A stretch of DNA of 64,000 nucleotides from Chiloscyllium plagiosum (GCF_004010195.1 NC_057712.1:39865470-39929469), one strand, 5' to 3'. Counted from the stretch's first letter, positions 21,000 to 58,295 are shown. Numbers and translations: made by a program. The notes: a model not told the origin generated them from the letters alone.

Positions 21000-22047
21000 G
21001 ATGTGAACATAGGAAGTATAGTTAGTAAGTTTGCTGATGACATCAAAATTGGAGGTGTAGTGGACAGCGAAGAAGGTTACCTCAGATTACAACAGGATCT
21101 TGATCAGATGAGCCAATGGGCTGAGGAGTAGCAGATGGAGTTTAATTTAGATAATTGTGAGTTGCTGTATTTTGGGAAAGCAAATCTTAGCAGGACTTAT
21201 ACACTTAATGGTAAGGTCCTAGGGAGTGTTGCTGAACAAAGGTACTTTGGAGTCCAGGTTCATAGCTCCTTGAAAGTGGAGTCGCAGGTAGATAGGATAG
21301 TGAAGAAGGCATTTAGGTATGCTTTCCTTTATTGGTCAGAGCATTGCGTACTGGAGTTGGAAAGACATGTTGCAGCTATACAGGACACTGGTTAAGCCAT
21401 GGATGTAAGTTTTCTCACTGAGCTGGAAGATTCATTTTCAGACATTTCGTAACCACACTAGGTGACATCATCAGTGAGCCTCTGCTGAAGAGCTGGTGTT
21501 ATGTTCAACCACTTTTGGAATACCATGTGCAGTTCTGGTCTCTTCCTATAGGAAGGATGTTGCGAAACTTGAAATGGTTCAGAAAAGATTTACAAGGATG
21601 TTGCCAGGGTTGAAGGGCTTGACCTACAGGGAGAGGCTGAATAGACTGGGGCTGTTTTCCCTGGAACATTGGAGGCTGAGCGGTGACCTTATAGAAGTTT
21701 ATAAAGTCATGAGGGCATGGATAGGATAAATAGACAAAGTCTTTTCCCTGAGGTTGGGGAGTCCAGAACTAGAGGGCATAGGTTTAGGATGAGAGGGGAA
21801 AGATTTAAAAGGGACCTAAGGGGCAACTTTTTCACACAGAGGGTGCTGCGAGTACGGAATAAGTTGCCAGAGGAAGTGGTGGAGGCTGGTACAATTGCAA
21901 CATTTAAAAGGCATCTCGATGGGTATATGAATAGGAAGGGTTTAGAGGGATATGGGCCAAGTGCTGGCAAATGGGACTAGATTAATTTAGAATATCTGGT
22001 TGTATGGATGAGTTGGACTGAAGGGCCTGTTTCTGTGCTGTACACCT
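21000..22047 (+). mobile_element. CR1 LINE 3' fragment interrupted by a Penelope-derived insert at ~21400-21508
   Basis: ORFs 21135-21395, 21496-21729, 21717-21980 CR1 ORF2; ctatgact tail. Confidence 0.92.
21400..21508 (-). mobile_element. Penelope pLTR fragment with hammerhead core (21441-21474)
   Basis: Interrupts CR1 between ggttaagcca and acttttgg; minus strand CTGATGA-T-GTCACC-TAGTGT-GGTTAC-GAAA-TGTC; similar to 28592-29046. Confidence 0.75.
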
Positions 22048-22129
22048 CTATGACTTTATGACTCTATTTAAGACTGCAATAAAGATGCGCTAATACAAAC
22101 AATATATAACAAATAATAGTAAGAAAAGA

Positions 22130-22320
22130 GGACTAAAGATGCTGGAAATGTGAAACAAGCAGAAAGTGCTGGAAAAACACAGCGGATCCGTCAGCATCTG
22201 TATAGAGAGAGAGAGAAGCAGTGAGTTTACTGACCACTTTCTGATCCTTCTGACAAAGGATCACTGGATTTGACTTTGCATTCTGTCTCTGCAGGCGACT
22301 CTCAGTCAGACTTTCAGCAG
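22130..22320. mobile_element. Degenerate Penelope-derived inverted-repeat element
   Basis: gatgctggaaatgtgaaacaa..gtgctggaaaaacacagc..cagcatctg resembles the pLTR at 43423-43520; similar decayed copies at ~5520-5690 and ~61390-61515. Confidence 0.55.
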
Positions 22321-22864
22321 TGAAATGAGGAAACCTTTCAACAAGGGTGTGGAAAAATCAAATTATCTTGAGCAACAGACAATCGAAATGATACAAACTG
22401 ATTTAAACATGCAGAGATTTATGGATCTTTGAGGAAGATGGGGGAAAGCATGGATATGGAGTAGGTCAGGCATCTCTCGGGATGGTGGAACAGGCTTGTG
22501 GGGGTAAGGTCTGGCCCTGTTCCTATGTAACACAGGCAACATTTGCAAAGCTGTCTAAGGCCAAGGGACCGATAGAGATCGGAGAAGGGGTTGTAAAAAG
22601 ATAGTAGTCTCCCAGATGTTCCAGGTGGATGAGAGGTCCTGACAGACTAACAGTGAGGGTGTTAAACCCCCAGCCTGCCACTCAGAGAGCGACCGTGTAG
22701 CTGACAGTGAAACATTAATTAAATAAGCTGTAAGGAGGGTTTTGGGCGGTGAGGCACTCGCTTCTCCCCTGCCCTGTTTACCATGCATTGCCCACCCTTT
22801 TAGACAGAGTCTAATCTAAGATTATTCTGTAATGTGTTCAGACCCCAAGATAATGTCAACTCAC

Positions 22865-22940
22865 AGTCAGTGTTCACAGACGCAACCTCCCGTCTCTCGC
22901 AGCGGAGATAGAGTCAACGCAATCTGCCTCCCCCTTCAGC
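22865..22940 (-). other. EIF2AK2: Putative non-coding first exon of EIF2AK2 (5' boundary uncertain)
   Basis: CpG-enriched segment just downstream of the ISRE/IRF motifs, ending in donor gact|gtgagt at 22865/22864. Confidence 0.6.
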
Positions 22941-22990
22941 CGGAAAGAGTTTCGTTTCTCGGCCTCTGCTCCTTTCACTTTCGCTTTCTT
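22940..22990 (-). promoter_or_regulatory. EIF2AK2: Interferon-responsive promoter: ISRE-like GAGAAACGAAACT (22948-22960), triple IRF element GAAAGCGAAAGTGAAAG (22972-22988), adjacent ETS-like CCGGAA
   Basis: Motifs read directly from sequence; close to the human PKR ISRE GGAAAACGAAACT; local CpG enrichment. Confidence 0.8.
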
Positions 22991-23627
22991 GCGGTGTTAC
23001 TGGAGGGGGACGCCCTTTGCAGCCGGGAGGCGCAGAACCCTCAGAGCTGGGAGCTGCTAGTGGGGCCCACACTGCAAACACACTATCATGTTTCAGGCAA
23101 TGAAACGGGGCTTGACGCGGCAGGGAAGGGTTGAAGGGTTTCAATACAGGCTGAGGTTTTGGGGCAGGGGGGTTGGAGTTCACAATGCTGGACCTGTTTG
23201 AAGGGACTGTCATATACATTGCTAAGCTGATAGGGGGTCAGGATGTCAAGAATCATCAATATCTCCGCCACCGGGTTTCTGTTCTGTGAGGTACAGCTGC
23301 ATCATGGTTATTATCGAATGCACACCCTTCGATGGAAGCCATGAAGTTTGCATTTCAAGGTCTCTTCGGTTCCACGTGTACCCCTTTCCAAAGGATGGAA
23401 ACCCAGCTCCAGCCTCGAGTTTTCTCTTCAGCTTGTTCCTCCTCTGAGCAGGAATGTATTGGCCCCCTTTATGACAACAGCTAAGTCAGATGTGGAGGAC
23501 TATTGACACAAGAAGCACCATCCCTGACTCATTGCAGATCGATACCCACCAGCTGGCAAGGCTGCTTGGAATGTCATCGTGAGAAACACAGGCAGACACT
23601 CCCAGTGTGGTCATGTGTAAATCCTTG

Positions 23628-24232
23628 GGTAACTGGGAGGTCATGTTGAGGCTGTACAGGACATTGGTTAGGCCACTGTTGGAATTTTGCGTGCAATTCT
23701 GGTCTCCTTCCTATCGGAAAGAGGTTGTGAAACTTGAAAGGGTTCAGAAAAGATTTACAAGGATGTTGCCAGGATTGGAGGATTTGAGCTACAGGGAGAG
23801 GCTGAACAGGCTGGGGCTGTTTTCCCTGGAGTGTCAGAGGCTGAGGGGTGACCTTATAGAGGTTTACAAAATTATGAGGGGCATGGATAGGATAAATAGA
23901 CAAAGTCTTTTCCCTGGGATCTGGGAGTCCAGAACCAGAGGGTATAGGTTTAGGGTGAGAGGGGAAAGATATAAAAGAGACCTAAGGGGCAACTTTTTCA
24001 CACAGAGGGTGGTACGGATATGGAATGAGCTGCCAGAGGATGTGGTGGAGGCTGGTACAATTGCAACATTTAAGAGGCATTTGGATGGGTATATGAATAG
24101 GAAGGGTTTGGAGGGATATGGGCCGGGTGCTGGCAGGTGGGACTAGATTGGGTTGGGATATCTGGTCAGCATAGATAGGTTGGACCGAAGGATCTGTTTC
24201 CATGCTGTGCATCTCTATGACTCTATGACTAT
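23628..24232 (+). mobile_element. Young CR1 LINE 3' fragment
   Basis: Uninterrupted ORF 23607-24146 CR1 ORF2 C-terminus; (ctatgact)n tail. Confidence 0.93.
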
Positions 24233-24924
24233 GACCAGAAGTTCTTCAAATCTATTATGTCCTGCAGTCTAAAGCACCTTAACAGAGCTCATTTCAATTA
24301 CAATTTCAAGCCCTGCATGTAACACGAACAATATTTGCAAAGCTGTCTAAGACCAAAGGACCGATAGAGATCGAGAAAGGGGTTGTAAAAACATACAAGT
24401 CTCCCAGTTGTTCCAGGTAGTATTTGGAGCTCAAAAAAAGTACACATGACAAATATCAAGTTAAACCGTGCTGTAAATAAATGTAATCCCTTAACAGCAT
24501 CTGTGCACTCCAGCCCTGACAGGGAGAGGCAGTTAATGCATAAGCTCACCATCATTTCCAGGTTTCTTTCCTCTGCACCATTCAGACCTGGCCCAATATC
24601 AGTTGTTTCTTCAGGATCGTTAGGTCAGGATCCTGATTCAGCAAGACTGAAGAAATAACTGTTTTTCATTTGACTTGGATGGGAGATTCGAAATGATGAT
24701 GTGTTCCTATACATTTGCTGCCTTTGTTTCTTGTTTTTGGAAATAAAAGTAGTGTTTGAGAATTATTTTTCATTCATTCATGGGATGTGGGTGTCACTGA
24801 CTGGGCCAGCATTTATTGCCCATCCCTAAGTTACCCTTGAGAAGGTGGTGTTAAACTGCGGCATCCAACTCTGACCAGTCATTTGTGGACAAATTTCCTC
24901 ATTGTCCAGTAGATGCAAGTGAAG

Positions 24925-25460
24925 AATCATAGAATCCCAACAGTGTAGAAACAGGACCTTCGGCCCAACAGGTCCACACTGACCCTCAGTAGAGTAAATG
25001 TGTTGCTGGAAAAGCGCAGCAGGTCAGGCAGCATCCAGGGAACAGAAGAATCGACGTTTCGGGCATAAGCCCTTCTTCAGGCTTAAGCCCGAAACGTCAA
25101 TTCTTCTGTTCCCTGGATGCTGCCTGACCTGCTGCGCTTTTCCAGCAACACCTTTTCAGCTCTGATCTCCAGCATCTGCAGTCCTCACTTTCTCCTCAGT
25201 AGAGTAACTCACTTAGACCCATTACCCTACATTTACCCTGACTAATGCACCCAACCTATTCATCCCTGAACACTATGGGCAATTTAGCATGGCCAATTCA
25301 CCTGACCTGCACACGTGGAAACCGGAGCACCCGGAGGAAACCCATACAGACATAGGGAGAATGTGCAAAATTTACACAGCTAGTTGCCTGAGGCTGGAAT
25401 CAAACCCAGGTCGCTGGCGCCGTGAGGCAGCAGTGCTAACCACTGACCTACCGTGCTGCC
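24925..25460 (-). mobile_element. HE1-like V-SINE carrying a nested Penelope-derived insertion
   Basis: Reverse complement of SINE head at 25400-25460 and tail at 24925-24990. Confidence 0.85.
24998..25193. mobile_element. Penelope-derived inverted-repeat element (family A) with hammerhead core at 25053-25080 (-)
   Basis: Inverted arms of ~70 bp; 14-bp direct repeat cctcagtagagtaa at 24984-24997 and 25194-25207; matches the pLTR of the Penelope at 43423-44125. Confidence 0.88.
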
Positions 25461-25609
25461 TCATAACCTCTGTAGGACCCAGTATCTCCACTAACTTGGT
25501 GATATCATGTGGAGTGATTCAAACTCTCTGGAGGTCCAGCACAGCCGGTCAGGCAGCATCCGAGGAGCAGGAGAATTGACGTTTCAAGCAGAAGCTCTTC
25601 TTTCCTGTT

Positions 25610-26535
25610 CATTCAAGTTTGAAAGTAGATTTAAAGAAACAGCTTCACTGAAAACCGGGTTGCTATTTATTTATCCGACCACCCCTCATGCGACCATAGG
25701 GGTAGCTCCAGCAGAGTTCCACATGGGGAAAACAGTTTGCACCATGTTAAACCTGATCTTCCCCAACATAGTGTGGGATGCAGTGGGGGAACTGCATCAG
25801 GAACACCAATGGGGACACAAAACTCCTTTAGGTGAGAGAGACAGTTTACCTCAGGGGAAGACATTTGGTGCTAAAACCACAGAAATAGGTAAGAGGCATG
25901 GTTAATGTAAGGTCAAGTGCCATGACATGTAAAGTTCAAATAGGTGAGGCGGTCCTGAACAAGCATGTGGACCACATGAAAACTGTAAACTTGCAAATGG
26001 ATTAGAAGCAAAATATACCCTGCCCCTTGGAACACGTGCAAAGACTGTTGGAACTGACGAGTTCTCCCCTTCCTTCTAGCATTGAAGGAACCTTGGAGTC
26101 TGAGATGGACATCTGAGGTGGATGTCACAACCTTGATGTTTTTACCGCCTGAAGAGAATGAATTTTTTCTGAGATGATCCAGGTGCACAAGGAGAGCTAC
26201 GGTCTGGTACACACTGTTTGTATGTAAGGCTGAGTAGGCGGAACCAGATTTGGTGCAAAACACCCAGGAGAGGCAACCAGGTAAAGAGCAGACTTATGTC
26301 CCTGAACTTAGGAGGGGAATGGATGTAGTGATTGTAACGAGGTCAGCCAGGTGGATCTCATAGAATGATGATTTCTGATTGGACCAGATGAACAGCCCCA
26401 ATCAGGGAGTGCTGGCTGACAGATATAAACAGGTGGACCAGAGATTCTGTTCAGTCAGATCAGTGTCAAGTAGTATGTGCATATGAATAAAGGGTGACTT
26501 GGGGATGGGGTATCAGCCTCTGCGGTGGTATTTCA
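25610..26535 (+). mobile_element. Gypsy LTR element 3' remnant (integrase C-terminus, PPT, 3' LTR 26324-26535)
   Basis: LLFIYPTTPHATIGVAPAEFHMGKTVCTMLNLIFP is a decayed integrase motif (YRTTPH..TG..PAEL); polypurine aggaggggaatgga then TG...CA LTR containing a TATA-like box and aataaa. Confidence 0.75.
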
Positions 26536-26951
26536 ATTATTGGCTAGTAAAGTTTGACCAAAACCTCCCTACTATAATGTGTTGTGTTAGATGAAATTGA
26601 ATTTAAATATCTGCTTTGAAATCTTTCGAACTGTTACATGCAACTTTATTTTCTATTTATTCTATTTCATCTTAACTTCATTTACATAATAATGAACATC
26701 GTTGAATATTAAAGCAAACCAGCATCATGTGCTTCTGTTTCAGTGAAAGACCATGTTACAGAAAGAAAAAACAAAATAGATCTGTCAAGCCAGATTTCAG
26801 TCTGGAATCGGACTTGTCCAGTAATTACATCAACTGGGATCATAAGTGTAATATGAAAAGTTTCAGCAAAATGTGCATTCTTTCAGTAATACTCAAGTTC
26901 TGACCCATCAAACATCATGTTCAGGCCTCTGATGAACAAATTTAGGAAATA

Positions 26952-26954
<3 letters not shown>

Positions 26955-26991
<37 letters not shown>
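26955..26991. repeat. (AC)18 microsatellite
   Basis: Direct read. Confidence 0.97.
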
Positions 26992-26994
<3 letters not shown>

Positions 26995-28591
26995 GATATT
27001 TGGAACTTTGTCCTACAAATGACATTTGGCACAAAGTCTAATTCTGAGATTGAAAGTTTTGTTAACCAAAGATATTAAGTGATATTGGACAAAGGTAGAT
27101 AACTTGGGCCATATCTTCTGATCAGTGGTGATGCCATGCACATCACTGCTGACTGCAGAAATCATTGTACCAATAAATGAAATGCACATTCAACCCAGCT
27201 GAAACTACAAAGTCTCATCACAATCTTGGAGAAGACTGGCAAAGAGGATTAGAGAGGGTGCATGGCACTTTTTGCAAATATTGAATGAGCTGTTGTATTA
27301 AGGTGTGATCTTAAAATTCTCAAATGATTCAATGGGACCAATAGTTTACATTGTGGATGGGAGAGTGATGGTGGTGAAAGAGGAGATGGGAATGGATAGT
27401 CAGATTTGGGATCAGGGAATGGATAGTCAGGACTTGACAGTGGTGGAGATGGTAATTTGTAGTGAGCTGAGTCACGTTATTTATCAGTTACACTAGAGCT
27501 AAAGTGGAAGTTAAATGTCTAACAAGTCAACTCTAGGGTTATTGGTTTAAAACAGGTGGAGACTTGATAGAAGATTCATCGATTCCAACCCTCTTCCCAG
27601 CTTTGCTTCAAAGTTAACTGGAGAACTGACAATCCTGACTTCAAACTCTGCTTCTGACTGCTGCATTTCTTCGTCACCAGAGACCACCTACTTCCCCCTT
27701 CTATGGCTTTGACCGCCTCTGTCTTGCCTATATTCATCTGCTGCTCAAACCCTCAAGCATGTCTTGGTTACCCACGGACTCAACAATCAACTGCTCCCTC
27801 GGCCAGTTCCCTATCACCTATAAATCACACCTCACCCAAAACTCTGCATTCCGTGCCCTATAAGACACCAGGTTCCATTCACCCAATGTCCATGTACTTG
27901 TTGATCTACACAGGCTCAAAATCTCCCCAATGCCTACAATTTAACACATTCATTCCTATGTTTAAATTCTTATCAACTCTTTCATTGTGCATCCTTCAAC
28001 CCACCACTTGAGGGCGAATGTTCAGCCTAATCCTCAATTTTGGTAATTTCCTCCTCCCCTCCTAATGCCCAGATAGGCAGGAGTGCACTACAGGAGTGAT
28101 GTTACTTTCCAGAACAGCACACTTTGTTAGAATGCGACATTTTGTCCGTTTATATACACAAATGATTCCAACCTTTAAATCACAGGGAAATGTCAAAAGT
28201 ATAGGCTGCTCCAAATACAGAAATAACTTGTGCCCTTTAATCTAGGAAATATCCCAAAGCAGAAATAAAGACACTTAGTGGAACAAATGTTGATCCATGA
28301 CGGGAAAGATTGGGAAGGACGACCAAGGGCTTGGTTGGAGATTATCTGGGGGAGAAATCAAGAACAAGGGCATAGAATCTTAAAATGGGCCACTCAGGAA
28401 ATCAGAAAGCATTTTTTTCACATAAAAACAAGCAGCAATCTGGAATTTCCTTTCCAAAAGATAAGGTAGTTATCTAGAAAGTAGACAGATATATACTAGT
28501 TAATGCTGAGGAAAGAGCTAGCCATTATAATGAAGATATGGTGGAGTTTGATATCCTGTAAGGATCAGATCCAATGGAAATGTCTTGACTC

Positions 28592-29046
28592 TGGATGTAG
28601 GTTTGCTCGCTGAGTTGGAAGGTTCATTTCCACCAACAAGCCACAAAAAGACATGATCCTCTCTTACTAGTATCCTCACATACGGACAAGGAAGGACAGC
28701 ACTTCGACTGGGACAACACATCCACCCTAGGACAAGCCAAACAAAGACATGCATGAGAATTCCTAGAAGCATGGCATTCCAACCGGAACACTATCAAAAA
28801 ACACATCGAGTTAGACCCCATCTACCACCCCATGAGAAAAATAATAGGAAGTGACTTCACCACAGGAAATGACATCACCAAGCAAACATAAATAGAACGC
28901 AGGAATGTTCAGCAGTGCTTCGCCTGAGGCCACTGAAGCTGTTACCTTGTAGGGTGACGAAACGTTGGAAATGAACCTTCCAGTTCAGCGAGCAAACCTA
29001 CATCCAAAACCTCAACCTTAGCTACAAATCTTCTCAAAACTCACTA
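28592..29046 (+). mobile_element. 5'-truncated Penelope-like element (GIY-YIG C-terminus, pLTR, short inverted pLTR at 5' end)
   Basis: HTDKEGQHFDWDNTSTLGQAKQRHA*EFLEAWHSNRNTIKKHIELDPIY is a Penelope endonuclease tail; 28592-28630 is inverted relative to 28967-29006; degenerate hammerhead at 28933-28966. Confidence 0.82.
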
Positions 29047-29089
29047 TGTCTTGGCTCTTCCCAGTTTGTGGATTCAATTTCTATATTAC

Positions 29090-30030
29090 ATAAAACAGCA
29101 CAGTACAGGCCCTTCGGTCCTAATCCAAGATCAGACTAACCTACATGCACTTCATTGTACTACCTTCCATGTCCAATCCGAGTCGCGTTATTGTCCCTAT
29201 TGTATCTGACTCTACATAGAGTGGTATGTGGAATGCACTGCCAGCATTGGTGGTAAAGAACTTCCCTCTGACACCTCTACTAAACCTTCCTCCAATTACC
29301 TGAAAATTATGTCCTATTGTGATAGACATTTCTGCCATGGGGAAAAAGTCTCTAGCTGTCCACTCTATCTATGCCTCTCATTATCTTGTACACCTCTATC
29401 AAGTCACCTCTCATCCTTCTTTGTTCCAATAAGAAAACCTGTAGCTCCCTCAACCTTTCTTCATAAGGCATGCCCTCCAGTCCAAGCAGCTTCCTGGTAA
29501 ATCTCCTCTGCACCCTTCCTAAAGCTTCCACATCTTTCCTATAATGTGGCGACCAGAACTGAACACAATATTCCAAGTATGGTCTAAGCAGGGCTCTACA
29601 GAACTTCAGCATAAGCTCATGGCTCTTAAACTCAATTCTCCCGCTAATGAAAGCCAATACACCAAATGCCTTAACAACCCTATTAACCGGATGGCAACTT
29701 TGAGTGATCCATGGACATGGACCGCAAGATTCCTCTGTTCCCCCACACTGCCAAGAATCCTGCCTTTAACCCTGCACACTATCCACAACTCCACCAACCT
29801 TCATGCCATCGACAAACTTACTAACCCATCCTTCCACTTCCTCATCTAAGTCATTTATAAAAATCACAAAGAGCAGAGATCCCAGAACAGATCCTTGTGG
29901 AACACACTGGTCACTGAGCTCCAAGCTGAAGACGTTTCATCTCCCACCACCCTCTGTCTTCTATGGGCCAACCAATTCTGTATCCAGACACAGGTTTGCC
30001 TGTATTCCATGCCTCCTTTCTTTCTGAATT
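29090..30030 (-). mobile_element. CR1 LINE 3' fragment
   Basis: ORF 29352-29657 LLRPYLEYCVQFWSPHYRKDVEAL. Confidence 0.9.
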
Positions 30031-40421: not shown

Positions 40422-40634
40422 CTGAAAATGTGTTGCTGGAAAAGTGCAGCAGGTCAGGCAGCATCCGAGGAACAGGAGAATCGACGTTTCGGGCATAAGC
40501 CCTTCTTCAGGAATCGGGCTTATGCCCGAAACGTCGATTCTCCTGTTCCTTGGATGCTGCCTGACCTACTGCGCTTTTCCAGCAACACATTTTCAGCTCT
40601 GGTCTCCAGCATCTGCAGTCCTCACTTTCTCCTC
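40422..40634. mobile_element. Penelope-derived inverted-repeat element (family A) with hammerhead core at 40483-40510 (-)
   Basis: Near-perfect inverted arms; flanking near-direct repeat ttttacccagactg / ttttaaccagactg. Confidence 0.88.
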
Positions 40635-43269: not shown

Positions 43270-43422
43270 CTAGGTGATCACAAATAGCAGTATTATCTTT
43301 AATTTTCTCTGAAAAGAAATTTGGCAAAGGCATTGGCTTTCCCTTGCTGGGACACAGTTTCAGGCCGCTCAATGAGTGGTTCCTCAAGGACCCCTTTTTT
43401 GTGTCCACATATTTGACCATAG

Positions 43423-44125
43423 TAGGAGAAAGTGAGGACTGCAGATGCTGGAGACCAGGGTTGAAAAATGTGGTGCTGGAAAAACACAGCAGGCCAGGCA
43501 GCATCTGAGGAGCAGGAGAATCGACTCTTCGGGCATAAGCCCTTCATTTCAGGAATGAGGCTGGTGTGCCAAGTGGGCTGAGATAAAGGGTAGGGGGGAG
43601 GGAATTTGGGAGAGGGGCGCTGGGAATACGATAGGTGGAAGGAGGTGAGGGTGAAGGTGATAGACCGGAGAGGGGGTGGGGGCGGAGGGGTTGNNNNNNN
43701 NNNNNNNNNNNNNNNNNNNNNNNNNNNNNNNNNNNNNNNNNNNNNNNNNNNNNNNNNNNNNNNNNNNNNNNNNNNNNNNNNNNNNNNNNNNNNNNNNNNN
43801 NNNNNNNNNNNNNNNNNNNNNNNNNNNNNNNNNNNNNNNNNNNNNNNNNNNNNNNNNNNNNNNNNNNNNNNNNNNNNNNNNNNNNNNNNNNNNNNNNNNN
43901 NGAGAGGGGAGGTGTGGGCGCAAGTCTTGCACCTCCTGCGGTTGCAGGGGAAGGTGCCGGGAGTAGAGGTGGGGTTGGTGGGGGGTGTGGACCTGACGAG
44001 GGAGTCGTGGAGGGAGTGGTCTCTCCGGAACTTGATAGGGGTGGGGAGGGAAAATATCCCTGGTGGTGGGGTCTGTTTGGAGGTGGTGGAAATGATGGTA
44101 GATGATACGATGTATCCGGAGGTTG
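43423..44125 (-). mobile_element. 5'-truncated Penelope-like element spanning an assembly gap; source family of the family A inverted-repeat elements
   Basis: FRRDHSLHDSLVRS...PGTFPCNRRRCKTCAH is the Cys-rich linker between RT and GIY-YIG; pLTR at 43423-43560 with a mutated hammerhead. Confidence 0.85.
43694..43901. other. Assembly gap (208 N)
   Basis: N run with G-rich flanks. Confidence 0.99.
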
Positions 44126-44703
44126 GTGTAGGGGGCATCAATCTTAATTTTCAACAGCATTGCCCACATCCAGGAAAACAAACAACAGTCAAGCAGAAGG
44201 TCTCTCCCCTCTGCTCTGGAAAACACTACCACCAGAACAACTTAATTTGTCACCTTTGCTACTTGTGGGAACATGGCTGTGCACAAACTGCAGTACCACA
44301 TTTGCCTATGAAATTCACTGCTATAACAATAGAGCAGACCATTCAGCCCCTCAAGTCTGCTTCGCCATTCAACTTTGTCAGAGCTAATCATCTACCTCAG
44401 TGCATTCTTCCCATACTACCTCCTGATCTTGACATCTTTAATATGTAGAAATGTATTAATGGCTGTCTTGAATGTTTGAGCCTCCAAAGGCCTGACAATT
44501 CACCGCCGAGTGAAGAATGCCTCATCCCTTGATTAATGGCCAGTACTTACTCTGAGAGTGTGTACCCTAGTTCTGGACTCCCTAGCAAGGGAAAACATCG
44601 TTCCTGCATCTAACTTGAGTCCTGTAAGAATTTCACGAAGTTCAATGAGATCATTTCTTAGTCTTCTAAATTTTTAAGAGTACAGGCCCTGTTTCCTTAA
44701 GTT

Positions 44704-44852: not shown

Positions 44853-45038
44853 CTGTTTCCTTAAGTTCTCTTCGTAAGACAATCTGCTCTCTGACCTGCT
44901 GTGCTTCTCCTCATCCTCAGCTCTATAGTTTTTCTGTCCCTAGTCAACATGTTTAACATCAGCACTCTCTGCAACTAGCCCCAATCCCCGGCCGCTACTC
45001 CTTCTGAAAGGACCGTGACCACGGAGCCGAATCCTTAC

Positions 45039-45118
45039 TGCAAATCGACGAACACATCCGACATGTAATCATCTTTCTCCTCCTCGACTTCCTCCGGCCG
45101 CACACTCCCAGTCGCCAT
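45039..45118 (-). CDS. GPATCH11: GPATCH11 exon 1 coding part (MATGSVRPEEVEEEKDDYMSDVFVDL)
   Basis: DDYMSD motif of the GPATCH11 N-terminus; gagATGg Kozak; gtaagg donor; 8 exons total 813 nt = 270 aa plus stop. Confidence 0.93.
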
Positions 45119-45345
45119 CTCGCCAACCTCAGCCTCTGTCAGCGTCGAAGACTGGCGAACGCACATGCGCAGAGCTGCCAGGAGGCCTGCGGGCGATAGA
45201 TGCGCCTGCGCAATATGGAAACGGACCCTGTGCTGTACGTGCGCATGCCCAGAGCCGGTGGCCGGGCACCACGCTGCGACTGCGCGTGAGCGACTCTGTG
45301 TGTGTGTGTGTGTGGGGAGAATGCCGTGACTGCGCGTGCGTCCTG
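45110..45345. promoter_or_regulatory. Bidirectional CpG-island promoter GPATCH11/HEATR5B with NRF1-like and YY1-like motifs
   Basis: gcacatgcgca 45161-45171, tgcgcctgcgca 45201-45212, tgcgcatgccca 45240-45251; cgccatct over the GPATCH11 ATG; CpG-rich ~44985-45610. Confidence 0.85.
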
Positions 45346-45517
45346 TCGGTGACAGATCGTGGTTGTGGTGGTGGGGAGCTGCTGATGCTGGCGCTGGGGG
45401 CGGTTGCTGTCTCAGTCTCGGAATCGGAATCACTGACGGACTGAGCAGCAGTTCCTGCCCGCGGCGGAGTGAAGCCCTTACCGGATTCCCAAGCTCGGAT
45501 CTGGAAGCGGAGAGTAG
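45330..45517 (+). other. HEATR5B: HEATR5B non-coding first exon (5' boundary uncertain)
   Basis: Within the CpG island; strong donor ag|gtgagt at 45517/45518. Confidence 0.7.
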
Positions 45518-45748
45518 GTGAGTAGCTGGGCCGCAGGGTGAGGCGCTGTGGCCCCGGGGATTATTGACTCGGCGCATCGGCCTGTTGCCGGCCAGACGCC
45601 GGGAGCTGAGGGGGACAGGGCATTGTTCAGATTCCTCTCATCCCACCGTCCCAGTGACTCCCTCCCCACTCTCCCCCCTTCACACTCTTCCCCCCTACCC
45701 TCGCCCCCCTCATCCCCCCCTCATCCCCCTTCCCCCCATCCCTCCCTC

Positions 45749-48350: not shown

Positions 48351-49405
48351 TTGTGTGCAACAGCATTTCTAGTAAAATAATTGATTACGATTTTTAAGTA
48401 GGTGTCACTCGAGAAGTATATTCCTACAAGTTCAAAGAGAATACAGAATTGTGTAATGGAAAGGAAGATATCAAGTCAAGTGCCAGGCCAATAAAAGTGA
48501 AGCCACTATACTATCATTTCCTGAATAGAGGATTGTTCGACTAGTTCCTTTATCCCTTCTCCACCATGCTCCAGAATACACACATGTCTGCCCAGCTGAA
48601 CGATCTTCTGTATTTTTTCTTCAGGCTGCAATGATATTGTCGTAGGCTTCTGGGATTGGAAGCTTCTTTGATAATAGTAAAGGGGAAAAAGCGGTTATTG
48701 CCCAAGAAGTCAGCATCAGATGACCAAAGGATCTGGAAGAGATGCATGGGTGAAGGGGTAAATGAGAGCTTAGAGGAGAAGGTGAAGGTTTTAAACATTG
48801 AGGTGCTTGGTGTGGTATAGGACAGGGGTGATGCATTTAAGAGACCAGTTCACACATGGAAGTGTTTGGGTAAGTTGGAGCATATGGGGAGAATTAGAAG
48901 TTAATTGAGACAACATTAAAGTAATGAGTTACTGTCGCAGAGTTTGATCAGCAGGGGCACTCAGGTAAAGGTGCTGACTGGCAATATTACCCCGAAAAGG
49001 GAAAACCTTCTTGCTCAATGACATAAGAGATTTGAAACTCTGCCCTACGTTAAATGGGCATCAAGAGTTTGCAGCCAAAGAAAGGATGTAGTCAGTAACA
49101 AGGGAGATGACTTAATGGCATGATCCAAATATCAGTCTTCCTGCGCTGTCAGAGAAAATTGTGACTTATCTATGGTCTGATGTCAGACAGACAGTCTTGA
49201 CATAAGTCTGAAGAAGAAGAATTGGGTATCAAGAATGTGTTTAGAAGTTGGCCTCATAATATTCTGAAAGATCAGCATAAGGAGGAAGATGAGGGAGATC
49301 CCTGGGTGACTCCATAAGTACAAGGATGGGAAGTGTCAGGTTGTTGTAAAATGAAACAGCTCAGCTGCATTTATCACCAAACAGGTCAATAATATAAGAA
49401 TTTAA

Positions 49406-49696
<291 letters not shown>

Positions 49697-50629
49697 TAAG
49701 TGCAAGTCAAGGAGAAAACATATGGTATAGCTGATGTGACTAATTTAAATTAAGTCGGTAGTCTGTGCAAGAGCTAACTGTGGAGATTGTATGAAATCTT
49801 ACATCACAGCTTAAGGCCAATTTGTCTGTACTGCCTATGCACTACTTTGAAAGATCACATGAATTGCCATTTGAAAATTGCTAGCGATGCCAGCAACCTG
49901 AGAAGTTTTGCCTCCATTAAACATATCGGCGTGAGACTCTTCGAATGAAAAATTGGCAAATAATTTGTCCTAAGAAAATAATAAATTTTCCACAATACTC
50001 CAATTAGGATTTATTTTATAATGTCTTCATAAAGTGCATTACGAAGACTTGGCATAACTACTTTGCTTCTGTACTGTGTCCCTATTTATAAAGTCAAGGA
50101 TTCTGTATGCTTTTTTTTTAACAACATTCTTACCTTCTGTCACTTTTGAAGATTTATTTACACATACCCATGTGGTCTGAACATGGATCTCTGTGGAATA
50201 CTGTTGTATTGTGCACTTACTTCCAGTCTAAAAAAATCACTCCCACTATTTGCTTTCTGTCCCTTAGCCAATTTTGTAACCAATCCCATTGGCTTCACTT
50301 TTTCTAATAAAAATGCTGAGGCTTAGGTGCATTCTGGGAGGAATTCCAGGAAATTCAGCAAGTTTTCCATCTGTTGACCCAAACTTAGTTTGATTTTATT
50401 TTTGTAAAATGGTGGAAGACATTTTTAAAGTGAGTGAGTAGAAGGCTTGGACATCTGGAGGGAAGCAGTGGTATAGATTTGATGGCCTGAATGCCTTTTA
50501 ATGGACAGAAACAAACCCACAGTAGCACCAAGCAGAATGTTTTCTAACTCTGAGCATAATTTTTAAAGACTTCTGCTAGCTTCTTTCTTGCTGTTTGCTC
50601 ACATTCCCCAAAAACCTTTGCAAGAGTTT

Positions 50630-51720
50630 AGAAATATGGAGATAGGGGTAGGCCACTTAGTCCTTGAGCCTGCTCTGCCACTCTGATTATGACTGATTAA
50701 GTACTTTTGAGTCTTTTTCCCCAAATTATACCCATATTACTTTACATCATTGGTCTGTTGAAATCTGTCAATCTCCACTTTTAAATATACTCAAAAAATT
50801 CAAGCTTCCACAACCTGCTAACATTGCAAATTCCAAAGATTCACAGCCTTTCTGAATAATACTCTCAGTCCAAAGTGACACCCTTATATTTTTAAATTGT
50901 ACCTCCTGATTTTAGATCCCATAACATGCAATAAAATCTCCCCCCTGCTTCATTTTGGTCTAGTCCCTGCCCACTCTCCCTAACCTCCCAGCATGTCCCA
51001 CCTGCCACCCCCACCTCATTCCTATCTTTGATGGTTTGCATTACCCATAATGCGCTTTGCTTGTAAATGCTTAATTGGCTACGTGGTATTTTTACTTGTG
51101 GTGGTTATTAGTTTTTTTTTAAAAACGTCAGTGGTTTTGGTGGTGGGAAGGTCACTGAGTTGTGTGTGATAACACATCTGGGTAGACAGCAAAAGGAAAA
51201 CAAAGTCTTGCCTCCATCTGCTCTTTCTATCCCGTTTAAGTATATTTCAATGAGATTACCTCTCATTCTTCAAAACTCTAGAGGACAACTCAGGAACAAG
51301 TCTGGTGAACTTTCATGGCATTATCTGGATGACAATAATATCTTTCCTGAGAGAAGGAGACCAAAACTGTATGCAGTACTCTAGGTGTGGTCTAACCAAG
51401 CTCCTGCCCAATTGAAACAAGACTTTGTGACTCCTGTACTCAACCCCTCTTACAATAAAAGTTAGCATTTCATTAGTCTTTCTAGTAGCTTGCCCACCTG
51501 CATGTTAGCCACCTTTGATTTTTGACGAGGCCACCCAGGTCCATCTGTACATCTCCACATTTTAAGAATAACTCTGCCTATTGGTTTTCCGTGCCATAGT
51601 TGATAACTTTACATTTTTCTTTGCTATATTACATCTGCTCACTCACAGTCTGTCCAAATTTTTTTGAAGTCACTTGGCATCTTCCTCACTGCACACATTC
51701 CCACTATTTTTGAAGGGTAA
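50630..51720 (-). mobile_element. Old degenerate CR1 fragments
   Basis: Decayed similarity to the CR1 3' region. Confidence 0.6.
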
Positions 51721-52009
51721 TGCAACCCATTCCCCATATTTATATTTTTTGGTTACCGTTGGTTTCCTCTCCCTGTTGTGTTTCCAACATAACTTTTCCT
51801 TGTCAATGTCTACGGTACTTCATTTCTCTCTCCTTTCCCAATTGTATATCTCCAGCTTCTTTCCCTTCCTTTCTCTGTCCTATTATTCGCATCTAGGGCT
51901 TGATGTAACCTTTTACTCTTAAGCTTCACCTTACATCATTTCAGCTGCTCTCAAAATTGTTTAGTTTTCATCTGTATGTTTCCTTTCACAGTTGCCATAT
52001 TAAATTATT

Positions 52010-52753
<744 letters not shown>

Positions 52754-53936
52754 TAGTTGGAATATTGAGTAGAAAGGAATTATACGTCTTCAGGAGTCGT
52801 CTGCTGCGTAAAATCCATCTGTGCTGATGTATAAACATTTTAAATCAAGCATAGGCAAGGATACAGTTAATGCAACTATAAGCAAAAATGTTAGCAATGT
52901 CATGTAGAGTTAGTGTTCCAAATTTTGGCAAGGTCACGATATTTTGGTGGACTTGTAGTCAGGCAATGTAATGTTGCAGAAGACTAACTGTGACCTGGAA
53001 TAAGTTGGTTGTATCAATGTTCCTTTTATCAGTGGGTTGCATCCAAGTGCCATAAAGTGCTTTGCTCTACAGCTGGCCAAATAGGATGACAGCCCTTACC
53101 CTGAGCATGGATAGGATCTGTAGCGTACAGACGAATGTAGCAGAGTTTTCTGAATTATTCACTCCCCTTTCCTCTTTTCAGTCATGCACACCAGCATGTT
53201 GCCCAAATGACACATTGCAATGTAGCCTGTAACTGAAGGAAGTTCAGTCCCATTAACAAAGGAGTTCAGTGCAGGAGCGTAGTCACATTTACTTTACAAC
53301 TACTGGTTAGTCTCAGCGTTAAAGATTGCTTTTGGCTTGTGACTGTTGTTATGGACCAGGAAAGACCCCCTCAAAACATTTTAAGAAGGTAGCCCATACC
53401 CTCACTTTTTTATTTAAAAAGGCAGATGTAAGGTGGATATTCCAGGAGTGATGCAGCTGGTCAAACCACTCACCTTTACACAAAACAGAATTTACTTAAA
53501 CACTGCAGTTGAAACACAAACAAAAGAAAACAGAATTTGGTATAACTCATTTGAAAACCCGACTGACTTAATATCACAACTTCATGAGGGAGCTATTTCA
53601 ATCCCTGCAATATCCCATAAACACACTCCTTGGCAAAAGGTAAATTCAAACACAGGTACTTACAGGCAGGAGAGATTTCAAAGAAAGTTCAGGCGAGGAA
53701 TATCCGGTGACGCATGGAACCTCTTTTCACTGTAGCAGCTTCTCTGCTATCCGCAGTTTCTGACTTCCTGCTAAAACAAACCAAACTAGGAAAAGACCTG
53801 AACTGGGAGAGCTGGCTACTCCCCTGCCATTGTTTAAAGTAGCCACGTCCAGCTATATCAGCACCCCTGTCTTTACTACCCTTCTTGAAAAACAGCAAGA
53901 TTAAAATAACCTTGTTAAAGGGGTAGCATCATCACA

Positions 53937-53949
53937 TCTCCCCTCTCCT
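53937..53949 (-). other. Polypurine tract of the LTR element
   Basis: aggagaggggaga abutting the 3' LTR. Confidence 0.8.
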
Positions 53950-56900
53950 ATAAAGAAGAACCATCAATAGACAAAGATGGCCTCATTTTGAAACTGCTTA
54001 GTCTTACTCTGCTAGTACATTACAATACATATACATTAACTATAACCTTACAAACACTCTATTTCAGTCTGTTTACTGCTGCCACCAAACGCCTCAGTTT
54101 TTCATCTTAATGGATCATGATCAATATATTTGATTGTTTCAGACAGATTACTGGCAACATAAATGTTGTAATGCCAACACCAAGCTCAAAGTCTCCCTCT
54201 CAATTGTCGAATATTTGTGTTGATGAATGTTCAATTTCCTGGAGAAATATCCAATAGGTCTTTCTATTTTCTCATCGTTGTCTTGTAAGAGTACAGCACC
54301 GACACCCACATCACTCGCATCGATAGCCACCTTGAAGGGCTTTGTATAATCAGGTATGGCCAATACTGGGCAGTGGTAAAGACAACTTACAGGCTGTCAA
54401 ATGCTTGTTGACAGTTTGCCGTCTAAAGAAATGCAAGTAGTTTCAGTAGTAATTCAGTGAGTGGAGCAGCCATACTGCTAAAATTCGAATTTCCAATAGA
54501 ATCCACTCAATCCCAGGAATTGTAGCACTGCTCTCTTTGCCGATGGTATGGGAAACTCCCCAATAACTGTTGTTTTTACATTCAATGGGGTCATTTGTCC
54601 ATGTCCGGTAACATGGCCCAGGAAGGTGACTTGCGCTTAGGTAAATTCACTGTTAGCGAGGTTTATCACCAAGTCTGCCTCCTGAAATCGATTGAATAAT
54701 TCTCATAAATGCTGCAAATATTCCTGTCATGTGTGACTAAAAATTACCAGGTCATCGATGTAAACCACACAATTGGGTAATCCGGAAATGACTTTATTGG
54801 TTAGTCTTTGAAATGTGGCTGGTGCATTTTTCATTGCAATTGGCATGACTCGAAATTGTGACAGTCCATTCAATGTTAGTAAACCCAAAATTGCATTTGC
54901 TGTATCGGATATAGGTACCTGCCAGTATTCTCTGAGTAAGTCCAGTTTAGAAATATAAGTTGCTTGTTCCACATTTTCAATGCACTCTTCCAAACATGGA
55001 ATCAGATATGAATCAGACTTTGTAACTGCAATAATCCGCACATAATCATTGGGTGCCATCTGGTTTTGGCACCATTACTATGGATGAGCTCCAGTCACTG
55101 CAACTCACTTTGATTATGTTGTCTAGAAGCATGCATTCAATCTCTTTTTGAACATGTACCAACTTTAAAGAGTTAGATCTATAAGGATGTTGTGTAATTG
55201 GAATAGCATTTCCCCTACATCTACATCATGGTTAGTTCCCAGAATATTTCCCAATGCGATAACAATAACTCTTTCACGTCATTTCAATTTTCCTCTAGAA
55301 GGTAACTCAATAACTTAACCAATTTTTGACAACTTCCTCCTTGTCCAATTTATTTTGAGGAATATATAATTACGAATCCTCTGAATTTTGTTCTTCCCTC
55401 TGTGTTGTCACCAGTAACGCATTCTCCTTTTGCTTTCCTTCCCTGCTAAAATCTTTCGAGCATATCCATGTGACACACTGAGATTTCTTTTATCTGGAGT
55501 CCTTATCAAATTTACACCTCACTCAATCTCCTTTTGATTTGATAAGGTTTGCTAAATCTTGCTTTTAAAGGTTCACCTATCACTGGAAGTAATACTACCA
55601 CTTTATCTTCAAGAGCAAGATTGTGAGATTTTGATTTCTTGTTTGGTTTCTGTTTCATCGTATTATGCTGTGATATTTTTAAATGCTGTCTAGCTAACTC
55701 CCCTGTTCTATTTTACCGTTTCCTAAAATTTGACACACAGTCCAAATATGTGGTCTTTGAATTCTGATTCACCAATTTCTTCTCCATTAAGTTTAGTGGT
55801 TCTCTCACTTCATGCCCAAACACTAATTCAAATGGACTGAATTTGGTCAATTCATTTGGTGCATCTCTAATGGAAAAAAGTACAAACTGAATTCTTTTAT
55901 CCCAATCATCTGGACAATCTTGACTGTAAGACCTCAACATGGTCTTTAATATCTGATGCCACCTTTCTAGCCCTCCCTGCGATTCTGGATGGTACACAGT
56001 GGATTTGAATTGTTTTATTCCTATGCTGTCCATAACCACCTTGAATAATTTTGATGTAACATTTGACCCTTGACCCTTGTATCTCTATGGGTAGTTCGTA
56101 TCTAGTGAAAGATTTGAGTAACTCTTCTATAATCCTTTTAGCTGTGATATTGTGTAAGGGAATGGCCTCTGGAAATCTAGTGGACACATCCAATATTGTT
56201 AACAAATTCTGATTCCCACCTTTCGTTTTAAGTAGGGATCCTACGCAAACAATTAAGACTCTTGTAAAAGGTTCCTCAAATGCAGGAATGGGTATTGAAG
56301 TGGGGGTTTTATTACTGCCTGTGGTTTTCCAATTACTTGACGTGTCTGTCAAAATTCAACTACATTCTTGTGCAGTCCAAGACAACAAAAATATTTTGTA
56401 TTATTAGCTTGCGTTTTTCTTGACCCTAAGTGAACTCCTACTGGGAGTTCTTGCCTTACCTGCAACACCACCTTTCTATTACCCACTGGTAATACTACTT
56501 AATGAATCTCTGCCCATTTATCATCTGCCTGAATATGTGATGGTCTCCATTTCCTCATTAAGACATCATTTTAAGATAGTAGCACTCAGGGATACATTCA
56601 GATTATTCTTCCTCGTATGCTTTGTGATACAATTGCTTCAATTTTTCATCTTTCTGTTGTAACTTAGTTAATTTGTCTGAACTAAAGATATCCACGTTGT
56701 TCTACACCTGTTCCTGTTTCGTCTCAATCATTTGATCAAGTATGGTGTCTGATAATTCTACTTCAACTTTCTTATTTGTACTCTGATTTCTCCTTCTGTT
56801 TAAACTGGTGGCTTTGTGACCTTGTTACCACGTTACTACACTGTCAGGAAAAATCCCAAAATATGTTCCCTGTAATACCTCAGTTGCCTAATTTTCCACT

Positions 56901-57974
56901 AGCTTTTCAACCACAGTAGGCAGCATTCCTACCTGTGACCCGGCTATATCAAAACAAAGGACATATTGTGTTCATGGAGCCAAGAGTTCTTCCAATACTC
57001 CTACCACTGCTTCTCCACCTTTCACTGCTCGCTCTAATCTCATTCTACATAATTGAGGACTTCTTGTCTCACCATCGATTCTGCATACAAGCACTTTTTA
57101 TGGCATATTCCTTCTGAATTACATGTCTCCTCATCTCTCAAGGATTGACATGATCCTATATGTCTCAATATTGTAACGTCTTTACCTGCTGCTCCTGGCC
57201 TATGCGAATAAACCTTACCATTGCAAGTAAATGATTTTAAAAGTTCTGGCACTTCCTCCTTAACCAACCTCTGACCAGGTTGTACATTCTGGTGCAGCTT
57301 TTTAGCCTCCACTGTGCTTTCCTTTACCACTCCAACAAAATTCACCGGCTTATCACGTTTACCTAAATCTGGCTTCCCAGTGCTTTTCCTAACCCATCAA
57401 CACTGATTTCATGCGGCCTACTTTATTGTTGTGAAAACACCAGAGCTTTTTAACTTCTCTTTCCACTTCATGGGTTTCCTTTTTACCTTGTGGTAAGTTA
57501 TCATTATGATCTTCACTGAGATCTACTTTTCCTTTAGCACATGAGGATTTTTCTTTTCCCGAATTTCCACCCTCATGGATTGAAATTGATGTTGGAAGCC
57601 AAACTTTGACTTATGGACCCACTCATAATCATCAGCCATTTCAGCTGCTAATGTTGCTGTCTTAACTCTCCTCTTCCACATATGTTTTCACTACCTCCCA
57701 GGGAGGGAAGTTTTGAACTCCAAAATAATCCAGTCTATAAGAGCATCATATCCAATGTCCTTATCCACCTGTCAAAATTATTTGGTTTTATGCTTTCAAA
57801 CTCAATTGTGGGTTTGACCAGAGTCCGTCCTTAGATTCCTGAAGCGTTGCCTGTAGGCTTCTGGTACAAGCTCACATGCACTTAAGATGACTTTCTTCAC
57901 CACTTCATAATCCCCAGATACCTCCTCTGAGAGTGATGCAAATATCTCACTTGCTGTACCTATCAGTTTTGTTT

Positions 57975-58295
57975 AAAGTTTGTGAGAAGATTTGTAGCTC
58001 GGGTGCTCGTTGTTGTGGTTCTGTTCGCCGAGCTGGGAATTTGTGTTGCAGACGTTTCGTCCCCTGCCTAGGTGACATCCTCAGTGCTTGGGAGCCTCCT
58101 GTGAAGCGCTTCTGTGGTGTTTCCTCCGGCATTTGTAGTTGTTTGAATCTGCCGCTTCCGGTTGTCAGTTCCAAATGCCGGAGGAAAGTTCACAGAAGCG
58201 CTTCACAGGAGGCTTCCAAGTACTGAGGATGTCACCTAGAGAGGGGATGAAACGTCTGCAACACAAATTCCCAGCTCGGAGAACAGAACCACAAT
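57975..58295. mobile_element. Penelope-derived inverted-repeat element (family B) nested in gag, with hammerhead cores on both strands (58051-58084 -, 58223-58256 +)
   Basis: Inverted arms of ~120 bp; CTGAGGA-T-GTCACCT-AGGC-AGGGGAC-GAAAC-GTC. Confidence 0.88.

Follow-up and report, generated by a model that had tools for sequence, protein, structure and literature searches.

Short inserts scattered through a 64,000-nt window of the Chiloscyllium plagiosum genome (GCF_004010195.1 NC_057712.1:39865470-39929469, the whole stretch of DNA analysed here) are end-pieces of Penelope-like retroelements (PLEs), and for the most part they follow an ordinary PLE pattern that has already been described. 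We consider it probable (about 0.8) that each of these end-pieces comes from a separate event and is unable to move again, the hammerhead ribozyme merely riding along, predicted to be locked wherever the copy forms a hairpin.

The inserts and their Penelope ancestry

All eight inserts of the original prediction are present, and two further family-A copies that it lacked were found at 25538 and 43423 (Table 1). Seven of the eight are head-to-head inverted repeats, as had been claimed for most of them, the exception being the single-arm C21400. Direct repeats were scored against 295 random position pairs from the window: four of the eight inserts have target duplications above chance, which bears out the claim that several are so flanked, one has an exact repeat that is not above chance, and in three no duplication was found. 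At least four sequence families had been distinguished but, since the sequences of B and C agree to about 70%, we recognise three groups (A; B/C; D). The view that the inserts densely populate introns holds in part: judged from exon ORFs, five of the eight are likely intronic, within two genes, one likely sits in intron 1 of PKR, and two likely fall between genes. An exon of the HEAT gene gave no match in the PDB, only generic HEAT-repeat look-alikes.

Table 1. Inserts and related features of the window. 5' edges of arms are relative to the predicted cut; the last column gives the direct repeat, its score and, in brackets, the number of the 295 random pairs reaching that score.
Feature	Position	Strand	Layout	5' edge	Hammerhead core	Direct repeat
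C21400	21400..21505	-	Poseidon-type pLTR end, single arm, no tail; in CR1-like LINE fragment	~-65	at 21474, helix III AUGU	none at boundaries
A24998	24984..25209	.	head-to-head, arms 24996-25071 and 25080-25155 (76 nt, 96%); right-arm tail to 25197	-29/-19; junction with 2 shared nt	at 25080, - strand; helix I down to 1 bp beside core	14 bp at 24984 and 25194; 13 (1)
Decayed family-A fragment	25538..25602	-		~-26	broken	
C28592	28580..29058	+	inverted arm 28592-28632 (41 nt, 95%), PLE ORF 3' end, pLTR, 39-nt tail	+1 to +3 (inverted arm)	broken in pLTR	13 bp (12/13); 10 (5)
A40422	40411..40653	.	head-to-head, arms 40422-40502 and 40516-40596 (81 nt, 96%); tail on right arm	-33/-20	at 40510, - strand; predicted cut between 40483 and 40482; best preserved	14 bp (13/14); 11 (1)
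Family-A pLTR, single arm	43423..43693	-	tail; pyrimidine-rich upstream region		disrupted by 2-nt insertion	
Neptune-type ORF remnant	43902..44136	-	frameshifted; RT-EN linker with C-X4-C-xx-C; upstream of 43423 pLTR			
D44704	44689..44867	.	inverted (20 nt, 95%), internal deletion; full tail on right arm, part of tail on other	-14/+3	CUGANGA absent from both arms	exact 15 bp; 15 (0)
D46619	46610..46826	.	near-perfect palindrome (76 nt, 84%); right-arm tail	both ~-36	motifs on - strand, helices broken	exact 9 bp at both boundaries; 8 (38)
A48205	48205..48350	.	decayed, inverted; left-arm tail; deletion inside left arm	-28/-15	none intact	none at boundaries
B57975	57975..58296	.	head-to-head, Poseidon-type, arms 58013-58135 and 58172-58294 (123 nt, 93%); 38-nt tail on left arm	-121/-85	at 58084 (-) and 58223 (+)	7 (95), not above chance

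The Penelope origin and the inverted pLTR junctions that had been suspected are backed by ORF remnants in families A and C and by the head-to-head layout. The ORF piece of C28592, the C-terminal part of a GIY-YIG domain with one in-frame stop, matches the protein P0002 (58% over 137 aa, E 7e-40), and C21400 matches the read-through C-terminus of P0002 (69% over 35 aa); family B is tied to PLE proteins through its DNA likeness to C. The ORF remnant of the 43423 element matches P0008 (E 5e-23), and its cysteine motif, aligned to P0008, fits the CX2-5CxxC linker between RT and EN of the Neptune clade, while P0002 has no Zn-finger linker by eye. Family A appears to match a Neptune-type protein, and B and C a Poseidon-type one. 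A run of N separates the family-A pLTR from the ORF remnant, so that their link rests on the assembly. Pfam matches in the two proteins were weak and below curated cut-offs (GIY-YIG in P0002 and P0008, E 0.0027 and 0.0019; RVT_1 in P0002, E 0.0073), and Pfam did not recognise the window's own PLE remnants. Family D left no remnant of an ORF in the window and matched neither P0002 nor P0008; it is likely a PLE derivative by its layout only. Traits of EN+ PLE insertions recur among the inserts: a link to an ORF with RT and C-terminal GIY-YIG (families A, B and C), inversion, a one-sided tail and, in some copies, a target-site duplication (TSD), a trait that is optional in these elements. Pattern scans gave no match in viral or metagenome contigs for family A and none in viral, metagenome and prokaryote collections for family D; three family-A matches in prokaryote genomes were set aside, being about the chance number for a 20-mer. 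A protein search with P0009, the open frame through the A tail and a candidate start of the ORF, left none of 15 candidates significant.

Hammerhead cores and their predicted occlusion

A minimal-hammerhead descriptor (CUGANGA, helix II, GAAA, palindromic 15.2-16.2, UH and a short helix I) gave six matches in the window, all inside listed inserts (A24998, A40422, both arms of B57975, C21400 and D46619), against 0.06 expected (mean of 200 dinucleotide shuffles, 12 of which held one match and none two). Thus five of the eight inserts keep a minimal core, but A48205, C28592 and D44704 do not, and the idea that every insert carries a ribozyme has to be narrowed accordingly. The proposed type I minimal motif is supported; its palindromic helix III is imperfect in C21400. 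Only A40422 keeps all four helix II pairs together with three of the first four helix I pairs, both B57975 arms have three of four helix II pairs and a 3-bp helix I, and the D46619 match has broken pairs in both helices. An Rfam search of the window (E<=10) returned ten matches, none of them a hammerhead; matches to miRNAs at 58094 and 40460 were rejected as far under gathering scores and reflecting the hairpins. That Rfam misses these hammerheads points to an annotation gap, not to a new class. G12 is altered in 282 of the 1,202 RNA reads covering it. CpG decay touches core and flank alike, and subfamilies confound a core-versus-flank comparison. An A-to-G excess in RNA reads (39 places vs 19-21 in contigs) was discarded as a sign of editing because other change types rise equally.

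Four of the five motif-keeping inserts are hairpin copies. Constrained to the hammerhead fold, five hairpin transcripts pay 23-61 kcal/mol as opposed to 0-7 for six isolated arms, and GAA is never unpaired in the predicted folds of hairpin transcripts. Since the antisense arm is also transcribed first in these copies, their ribozymes are predicted to be inactive, the motif being locked in double-stranded RNA by the mirror-image arm. With their core predicted to lie inside the duplex, hairpin copies are unlikely to cleave as dimers.

Junctions, edges and the making of inverted copies

In all seven inverted copies the tail end is reached by one arm only (tails of 38-46 nt), and the tail arm reaches further 5' than the other arm in three, less far in three and about equally in one. 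To the single-arm family-A copy at 43423 we aligned 66,418 contigs of X1 and 57,675 of X8 (public). The top loose-end rows listed were 43423-43426 and 43469-43470, a pair of favoured 3' ends separated by about 46 nt, and 43545/43547 on the 5' side of the core. The listing gives 15 joint rows, with 49 more joint rows and 51 between-letters rows beyond it, and may under-report hairpins with arms over the same place; among the 15 are 11 opposite-strand joints, all different and with depths of at most 83. Since all junctions differ and no joint dominates among those listed, the inserts are likely independent insertion products and not self-propagating hairpins. The original prediction had left a choice between ribozyme-bearing non-autonomous elements and extreme 5'-truncation products, naming junctions unique to every copy as the mark of independent truncation. 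The latter is supported and the former is not: no two of the seven inverted copies share a junction, and no opposite-strand joint was listed in more than five contigs.

Such products could arise if the GIY-YIG endonuclease of the element nicked both target strands and each nick primed reverse transcription at one of two internal start sites, the pLTR end and the tail end; both cDNAs would stop early and be linked head to head, in many cases by scant microhomology or none. The outcome would be an inverted repeat, its tail on one arm or the other, and a duplication from the staggered cut. For the shark copies, the two-primer joining and the RNA 5' end are inferred. In vitro, the Poseidon element of Anolis cuts and extends both strands and has two RT start sites (PMC11167929). 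The PLE literature describes TSDs of 8-10 bp and, in the passages available, single and opposite-strand minimal hammerheads arising from truncated PLEs.

A single cDNA might instead stall near helix II, fold back and prime the second arm, the hammerhead hairpin setting the junction. A24998 would suit this, with its two shared junction letters, an 8-nt loop and arms that differ from each other at 2 of 72 positions vs 3-6 to A40422, sharing private differences; self-priming at palindromic junctions has been proposed for rotifer PLEs, and the three copies with the longer tail arm fit as well. However, private differences common to both arms are equally expected if one RNA is primed twice, D46619 is almost loopless, and most junctions have little or no complementarity. 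Moreover, A24998, A40422 and D44704 carry the tail on what would be the second arm to be made, which the first could not template, so that the three copies with the shorter tail arm cannot be produced by fold-back of one cDNA. We therefore regard fold-back as unlikely.

Most copies of family A have their 5' edge a little upstream of the hammerhead core and not at the cut site. Their inverted junctions are closely spaced, that of A24998 being derivable from that of A40422 by a 7-nt deletion; the B and C copies do not share this edge. In A40422, 6-14 letters extend past the usual tail end and may belong to the element or to the host. The clustered family-A edge is possibly the 5' terminus of the template RNA. 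It is tempting, though distinctly speculative, to see the stubs as a fossil read-out in which the reverse transcriptase starts from the tail of its own mRNA's first pLTR copy and continues to the RNA's 5' end, shortly before the hammerhead. A dimer of the protein would work from both nicked strands simultaneously and the run-off cDNAs would be joined head to head; the ribozyme would then mark the front of the RNA without cutting it. A transcription start right at the hammerhead finds no parallel in D. virilis, where 46 nt and a 75-bp intron lie upstream, which tempers the run-off idea. An intron does end at helix I in D. virilis, and a splice acceptor was considered as the cause of the edge; it was set aside because the loose-end letters, as far as the aligner lets them be read, agree too little to hint at a common upstream exon.

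The edge might also be an artefact, the pyrimidine-rich upstream region having diverged between subfamilies and simply failing to align. Alignments are clipped at the 2-nt core insertion of the 43423 reference, which makes the edge look sharper than it is, the depth of contigs recovers in part farther upstream (at 43614-43663, to 41% of the core bin in X1 and 17% in X8), and a Stegostoma read-through peptide has only a weak match to the upstream region. Yet raw-read depth upstream is 8% of the core bin or less, four of the five family-A copies in the window end at -26 to -33, and the loose-end letters in contigs are A/T-rich with 0.41-0.44 agreement, like host-flank rows, and not purine-rich. 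An artefact thus seems rather improbable.

Could the stubs be families re-copied as a unit by PLE proteins, in the manner of a SINE or retrozyme, either the entire hairpin or a short RNA headed by the hammerhead being transcribed? Most family-A copies seem to cover a single short stretch that starts at the core's 5' side and stops at either of two 3' ends, the junctions of inverted A copies group at -28 to -33 and -15 to -20, 12 contigs in X1 and 6 in X8 hold head-to-tail joints of a ~124-nt unit, and animal retrozymes have been proposed as non-autonomous PLE derivatives. Besides the differing junctions and the missing high-depth common joint among listed rows, however, the A copies do not all have the tail on the same side, no tandem array occurs among the ten copies in the window, and the stubs end at the tail, without the downstream ORF stretch required by the Anolis protein, whose minimal template reaches +172 of the ORF (PMC11167929). 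Propagation of this kind is very unlikely. That hammerheads cut the template RNA in vivo, the stubs recording cleavage products, is highly improbable: one arm each of C28592 (+1 to +3) and D44704 (+3) ends just past the cut, a between-letters row of depth 135 in X1 connects +1 with the end of the tail, and the Anolis hammerhead cleaves when the element protein is present (PMC11167929), but the other 13 arms of the eight listed copies begin upstream of the cut, neither a listed loose-end row nor a read-end pile-up falls at 43523/43522 (a weak test in a poly(A)-primed single-cell library), and none such were found in Anolis (PMC11167929).

Known elements and significance

As far as the available passages go, EN+ PLE insertion units consist of a pLTR, an inverted 5'-truncated copy, a one-sided 30-40 bp tail and a TSD (Arkhipova et al. 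2013, PMC3846280; Craig et al. 2021, PMC8557442, bioRxiv 2021.04.23.441226). The shark copies resemble them in head-to-head inversion, tail at one end, direct repeats of 9-15 bp and ORF 3' remnants, including the Neptune linker motif in family A; they differ in being mostly only the last 80-200 nt, nearly just inverted pLTR ends, and those passages do not describe clustered 5' edges like those of family A. Genomes of fish, coelacanth and frog contain thousands of truncated PLE ends with minimal hammerheads. Compared with published minimal hammerheads, again in the text available, the shark cores share the type I core with an extra base between A9 and helix II (six of six matches), G10.1-C11.1 (five of six, G-U in one) and the palindromic 15.2-16.2. 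In both, the motifs are mostly solitary, sometimes paired on opposite strands 100-700 bp apart; helix II is 4 bp in family A vs 7-8 bp in Schistosoma. That text neither names the shark families nor discusses occlusion by an antisense arm.

PAc, the Poseidon element of Anolis carolinensis (Frangieh et al. 2024, PMC11167929), has an ATG at the start of helix II, as does family B, where it opens a frame running through the tail; in B the cut site lies ~26-28 nt downstream of the ATG and the tail end at ~+104, vs RT starts at +111-118 in PAc. Two 3' ends bracket the tail in both. However, PAc is a full-length active element whereas the shark copies are probably dead stubs, and that work does not show two cDNAs being joined to form an inverted unit. 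Non-LTR retrozymes of animals also have a type I hammerhead, PLE-pLTR ancestry and a short non-coding unit (Cervera and De la Pena 2020, PMC7229834; Li et al. 2026, bioRxiv 2026.07.22.740005), but they form head-to-tail tandem arrays making circular RNA, whereas the window copies are solitary or head-to-head, TSD-flanked and with minimal cores; tandem joints were seen, rarely, only in contigs. Literature searches listed nothing on PLE stubs in sharks or on the joining of cDNAs from two primers in PLEs, though subscription papers, Repbase/Dfam entries or supplements may hold one.

Through the hairpins, host pre-mRNAs are predicted to gain double-stranded RNA of 40-120 bp. The mechanistic value of these inserts could lie in a shark family whose very numerous short copies stop at two fixed 3' ends and share a clustered 5' edge, for which junction counts in an assembly could test both the one-sided-tail inversion and hammerhead cutting in vivo. 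If the run-off idea were true, shark genomes would be a very large data set mapping the start of the template RNA and would settle the origin of PLE inverted repeats that have a one-sided tail.

Penelope kinship and genomic setting of the inserts

Families A, B and C are ordinary debris of EN+ Penelope-like element (PLE) insertion. C28592 (handles give family and window start) carries the C-terminal portion of a PLE endonuclease, which matches the Stegostoma protein P0002 at 58% over 137 aa. The annotated frame of P0002 continues through the same terminal repeat (pLTR), and C21400 and the two arms of B57975 match it as well; its RVT_1 and GIY-YIG matches are weak and lie under the Pfam cut-offs. 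At the DNA level, likeness between families B and C is about 70%. The ATG of family B is placed at the beginning of helix II, with the frame open through the tail (the extra 38-46 nt at one end of a copy), a position like that in PAc, the Anolis Poseidon element (PMC11167929). For family A the link is to P0008, a Neptune-type protein with a weak GIY-YIG match: beyond a run of N, the copy at 43423 leads into an ORF remnant that is frameshifted, matches P0008 and contains a C-X4-C-xx-C motif, the linker by which Neptune and Nematis elements are recognised (PMC8557442). The read-through C-terminus of P0008 resembles the hammerhead region of family A weakly (10/15 residues, E 0.7). Family D gave no protein link and has the same layout as the others.

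The original prediction listed eight inserts, all of which we found at the locus, together with two further family-A copies (25538 and 43423); the ten add up to about 2,580 nt, or 4% of the window. The inverted-repeat build ascribed to most of them was seen head to head in seven of the eight, C21400 having one arm only. Flanking direct repeats scored above chance in A24998, A40422, C28592 and D44704, the null being 295 random position pairs; against the same null, B57975, C21400 and A48205 have none above chance, and the exact 9-mer at both boundaries of D46619 has a score matched by 38 of the 295 pairs. In the stretch 24900-25470, A24998 is nested within another short interspersed repeat, and C21400 sits within a CR1-like fragment; the PLE stubs therefore postdate the repeats that hold them.

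Arm edges of the inverted copies and host-gene features in the window. Edges (tail arm / other arm) are 5' ends relative to the predicted cut.
Feature	Position	Strand	Arm edges	Evidence
A24998	from 24998		-19/-29	
A40422	from 40422		-20/-33	
A48205	from 48205		-28/-15	
B57975	from 57975		-121/-85	
C28592	from 28592		~-333/+1	
D44704	from 44704		+3/-14	
D46619	from 46619		~-36/-36	
PKR-matching dsRNA-binding exon	6803-7102	-		E 8e-11
G-patch gene	~45110 to 33600	-		Pfam G-patch E 2e-8, exons
HEAT-repeat gene	49406-62107	+		exon ORFs

The window has a GC content of about 41% and many LINE fragments; where its retroelement remnants match named proteins, these belong to Stegostoma, Hemiscyllium and Chiloscyllium, which points to a carpet-shark-like genome. 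The G-patch and HEAT-repeat genes, which we take to be GPATCH11 and HEATR5B, start head to head in a GC-rich stretch near 45000-45600, and the gene order presumably matches human EIF2AK2-GPATCH11-HEATR5B. Judging from exon positions, the G-patch gene likely holds A40422, D44704 and the additional copy A43423 in its introns, the HEAT gene likely holds D46619, A48205 and B57975 in its own, and C21400 likely falls in the first PKR intron, A24998 and C28592 being likely intergenic. Decayed LTR-retrotransposon-like pol fragments (54730-57400, minus strand; RVT_1 E 3e-11, integrase-like text) likely occupy a HEAT-gene intron, and at 8995-9244 and 9920-10165 there are degenerate tandem arrays whose repeat periods are about 40 and 25 nt. 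The annotated shark host-gene isoforms P0003, P0004 and P0005 share a C-terminal family-C endonuclease fragment, by exonisation or as an annotation artefact.

Hammerhead cores and hairpin folding

A minimal-hammerhead descriptor found six sites in the window, all within inserts (shuffle mean 0.06, n=200), and all six carry an extra base before helix II, which the descriptor permitted and did not require; this base is a reported trait of PLE hammerheads (PMC4209133). That each insert carries a ribozyme is too broad a statement: five of the eight have a core, none is intact in A48205, C28592 and D44704, and, among inserts with a core, usable helices I and II are confined to A40422 and both arms of B57975. 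Rfam gave no hammerhead among its ten weak matches in the window.

In a head-to-head copy the transcript always presents an antisense arm before the sense hammerhead. ViennaRNA put the unpaired probability of the GAA at 0.00 in all five core-bearing hairpin transcripts, and a fold constrained to form helix II with the core open cost 23-61 kcal/mol in these transcripts versus 0-7 in six isolated arms. Published minimal PLE hammerheads are weak cleavers that act as dimers or together with the element protein (PMC4209133, PMC11167929; review citing Lunse et al. 2017). The hairpin copies are therefore predicted to be inactive as ribozymes; solitary copies have no partner in cis. The arms of D46619 (46619-46774) differ mostly in the 30 nt beside the junction, around the core, their outer parts being nearly identical, possibly because they were copied from different templates or because the centre of the palindrome has decayed.

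Origin of the inverted copies

In all seven inverted copies one arm reaches the end of the tail and the other stops short, as in the published one-sided PLE insertion pattern (bioRxiv 2021.04.23.441226; PMC3846280). The tail arm is the longer in three copies, the shorter in three and about equal in one. Two cDNAs primed from both nicked target strands at two start sites would account for all seven; we infer this origin because PAc in vitro cuts and extends both strands, with reverse transcription starting at two sites that flank the tail (PMC11167929). Fold-back of a single cDNA would also build both arms, and is unlikely, since it cannot place a tail on the arm made second. A self-propagating hairpin family is less probable still: such a family is defined by a shared junction, and the seven inversion junctions all differ. 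The copies are not non-LTR retrozymes, whose defining tandem units are absent among those in the window. Stubs ending in the tail would be dead ends if the PAc template requirement, the ORF up to +172 and hence past the tail (PMC11167929), is valid in sharks, as they would not be re-copied.

The short arm of C28592 (28592-28632) stops at +1 to +3 past the predicted cut, where cDNA of cleaved RNA would be expected to run off; this is a single case, with two ambiguous letters.

Family A in public sequence runs and its 5' edge

We aligned 66,418 contigs of run X1 (organism A), 57,675 contigs of run X8 (organism B) and 3,036 raw RNA reads of run X21 (about 2% of that run) to 43394-43693, a single-arm copy, with a likeness threshold of 80%. 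Most of the loose-end rows listed fall in three places: 43423-43426, where the tail ends; 43469-43470, where the pLTR ends; and 43545/43547, on the 5' side of the core, the last with 439+1,204 contigs in X1 and 444+1,272 in X8, an edge to be read with caution as a 2-nt insertion in the reference core clips alignments. The consensus of loose-end contigs keeps about ten element letters and then turns A/T-rich (agreement 0.41-0.44). From bin 43534-43543 to bin 43554-43563 depth falls to 5% (raw reads), 8% (X1) and 10% (X8), and at 43634-43643 it rebounds to 8%, 41% and 17%, respectively, summed contig depth not being copy number. In the window, four of five family-A copies end at -26 to -33.

A hairpin junction fixed in many copies should rank first, and none does among the joint rows listed, although alignment may under-report symmetric hairpins: 11 of the 15 are opposite-strand joints, all different, each with at most 5 contigs and a depth of at most 83, against arm depths in millions. 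Head-to-tail joints of a ~124-nt unit (43547 to 43424; 12 contigs in X1, 6 in X8) could be rare dimers of retrozyme type, whose two cores might pair. In X1 contigs of summed depth 135, 43522, the first base past the predicted cut, is joined to the tail end 43423 via four extra letters, as would be expected of a circle, or of a tandem, with its boundary at the cut site. Starts and ends of the X21 RNA reads show no pile-up, at the predicted cut included, the library being a weak test. RNA comes from both strands, with the element sense about 1.3-3 times more abundant provided that second mates represent the RNA strand, and core G12 is altered in 282 of 1,202 covering reads.

Compared with the available parts of the PLE, hammerhead and retrozyme literature (PMC4209133, PMC11167929, PMC8557442, PMC3846280, PMC8969392, PMC6155905, PMC6765202, PMC7229834, PMC2377424, bioRxiv 2021.04.23.441226 and bioRxiv 2026.07.22.740005, which sampled one chondrichthyan genome), the clustered family-A 5' edge just ahead of the core is the single feature for which we found no counterpart, although these families may be listed in the supplements to PMC4209133 and to that 2026 preprint. 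Run-off is not established as its cause, since in D. virilis the start site is some 120 nt upstream of the hammerhead (PMC4209133). Overall, the inserts, family D included, work like ordinary insertion debris, with a family-A edge that may reflect reverse transcriptase running off the 5' end of its template RNA.
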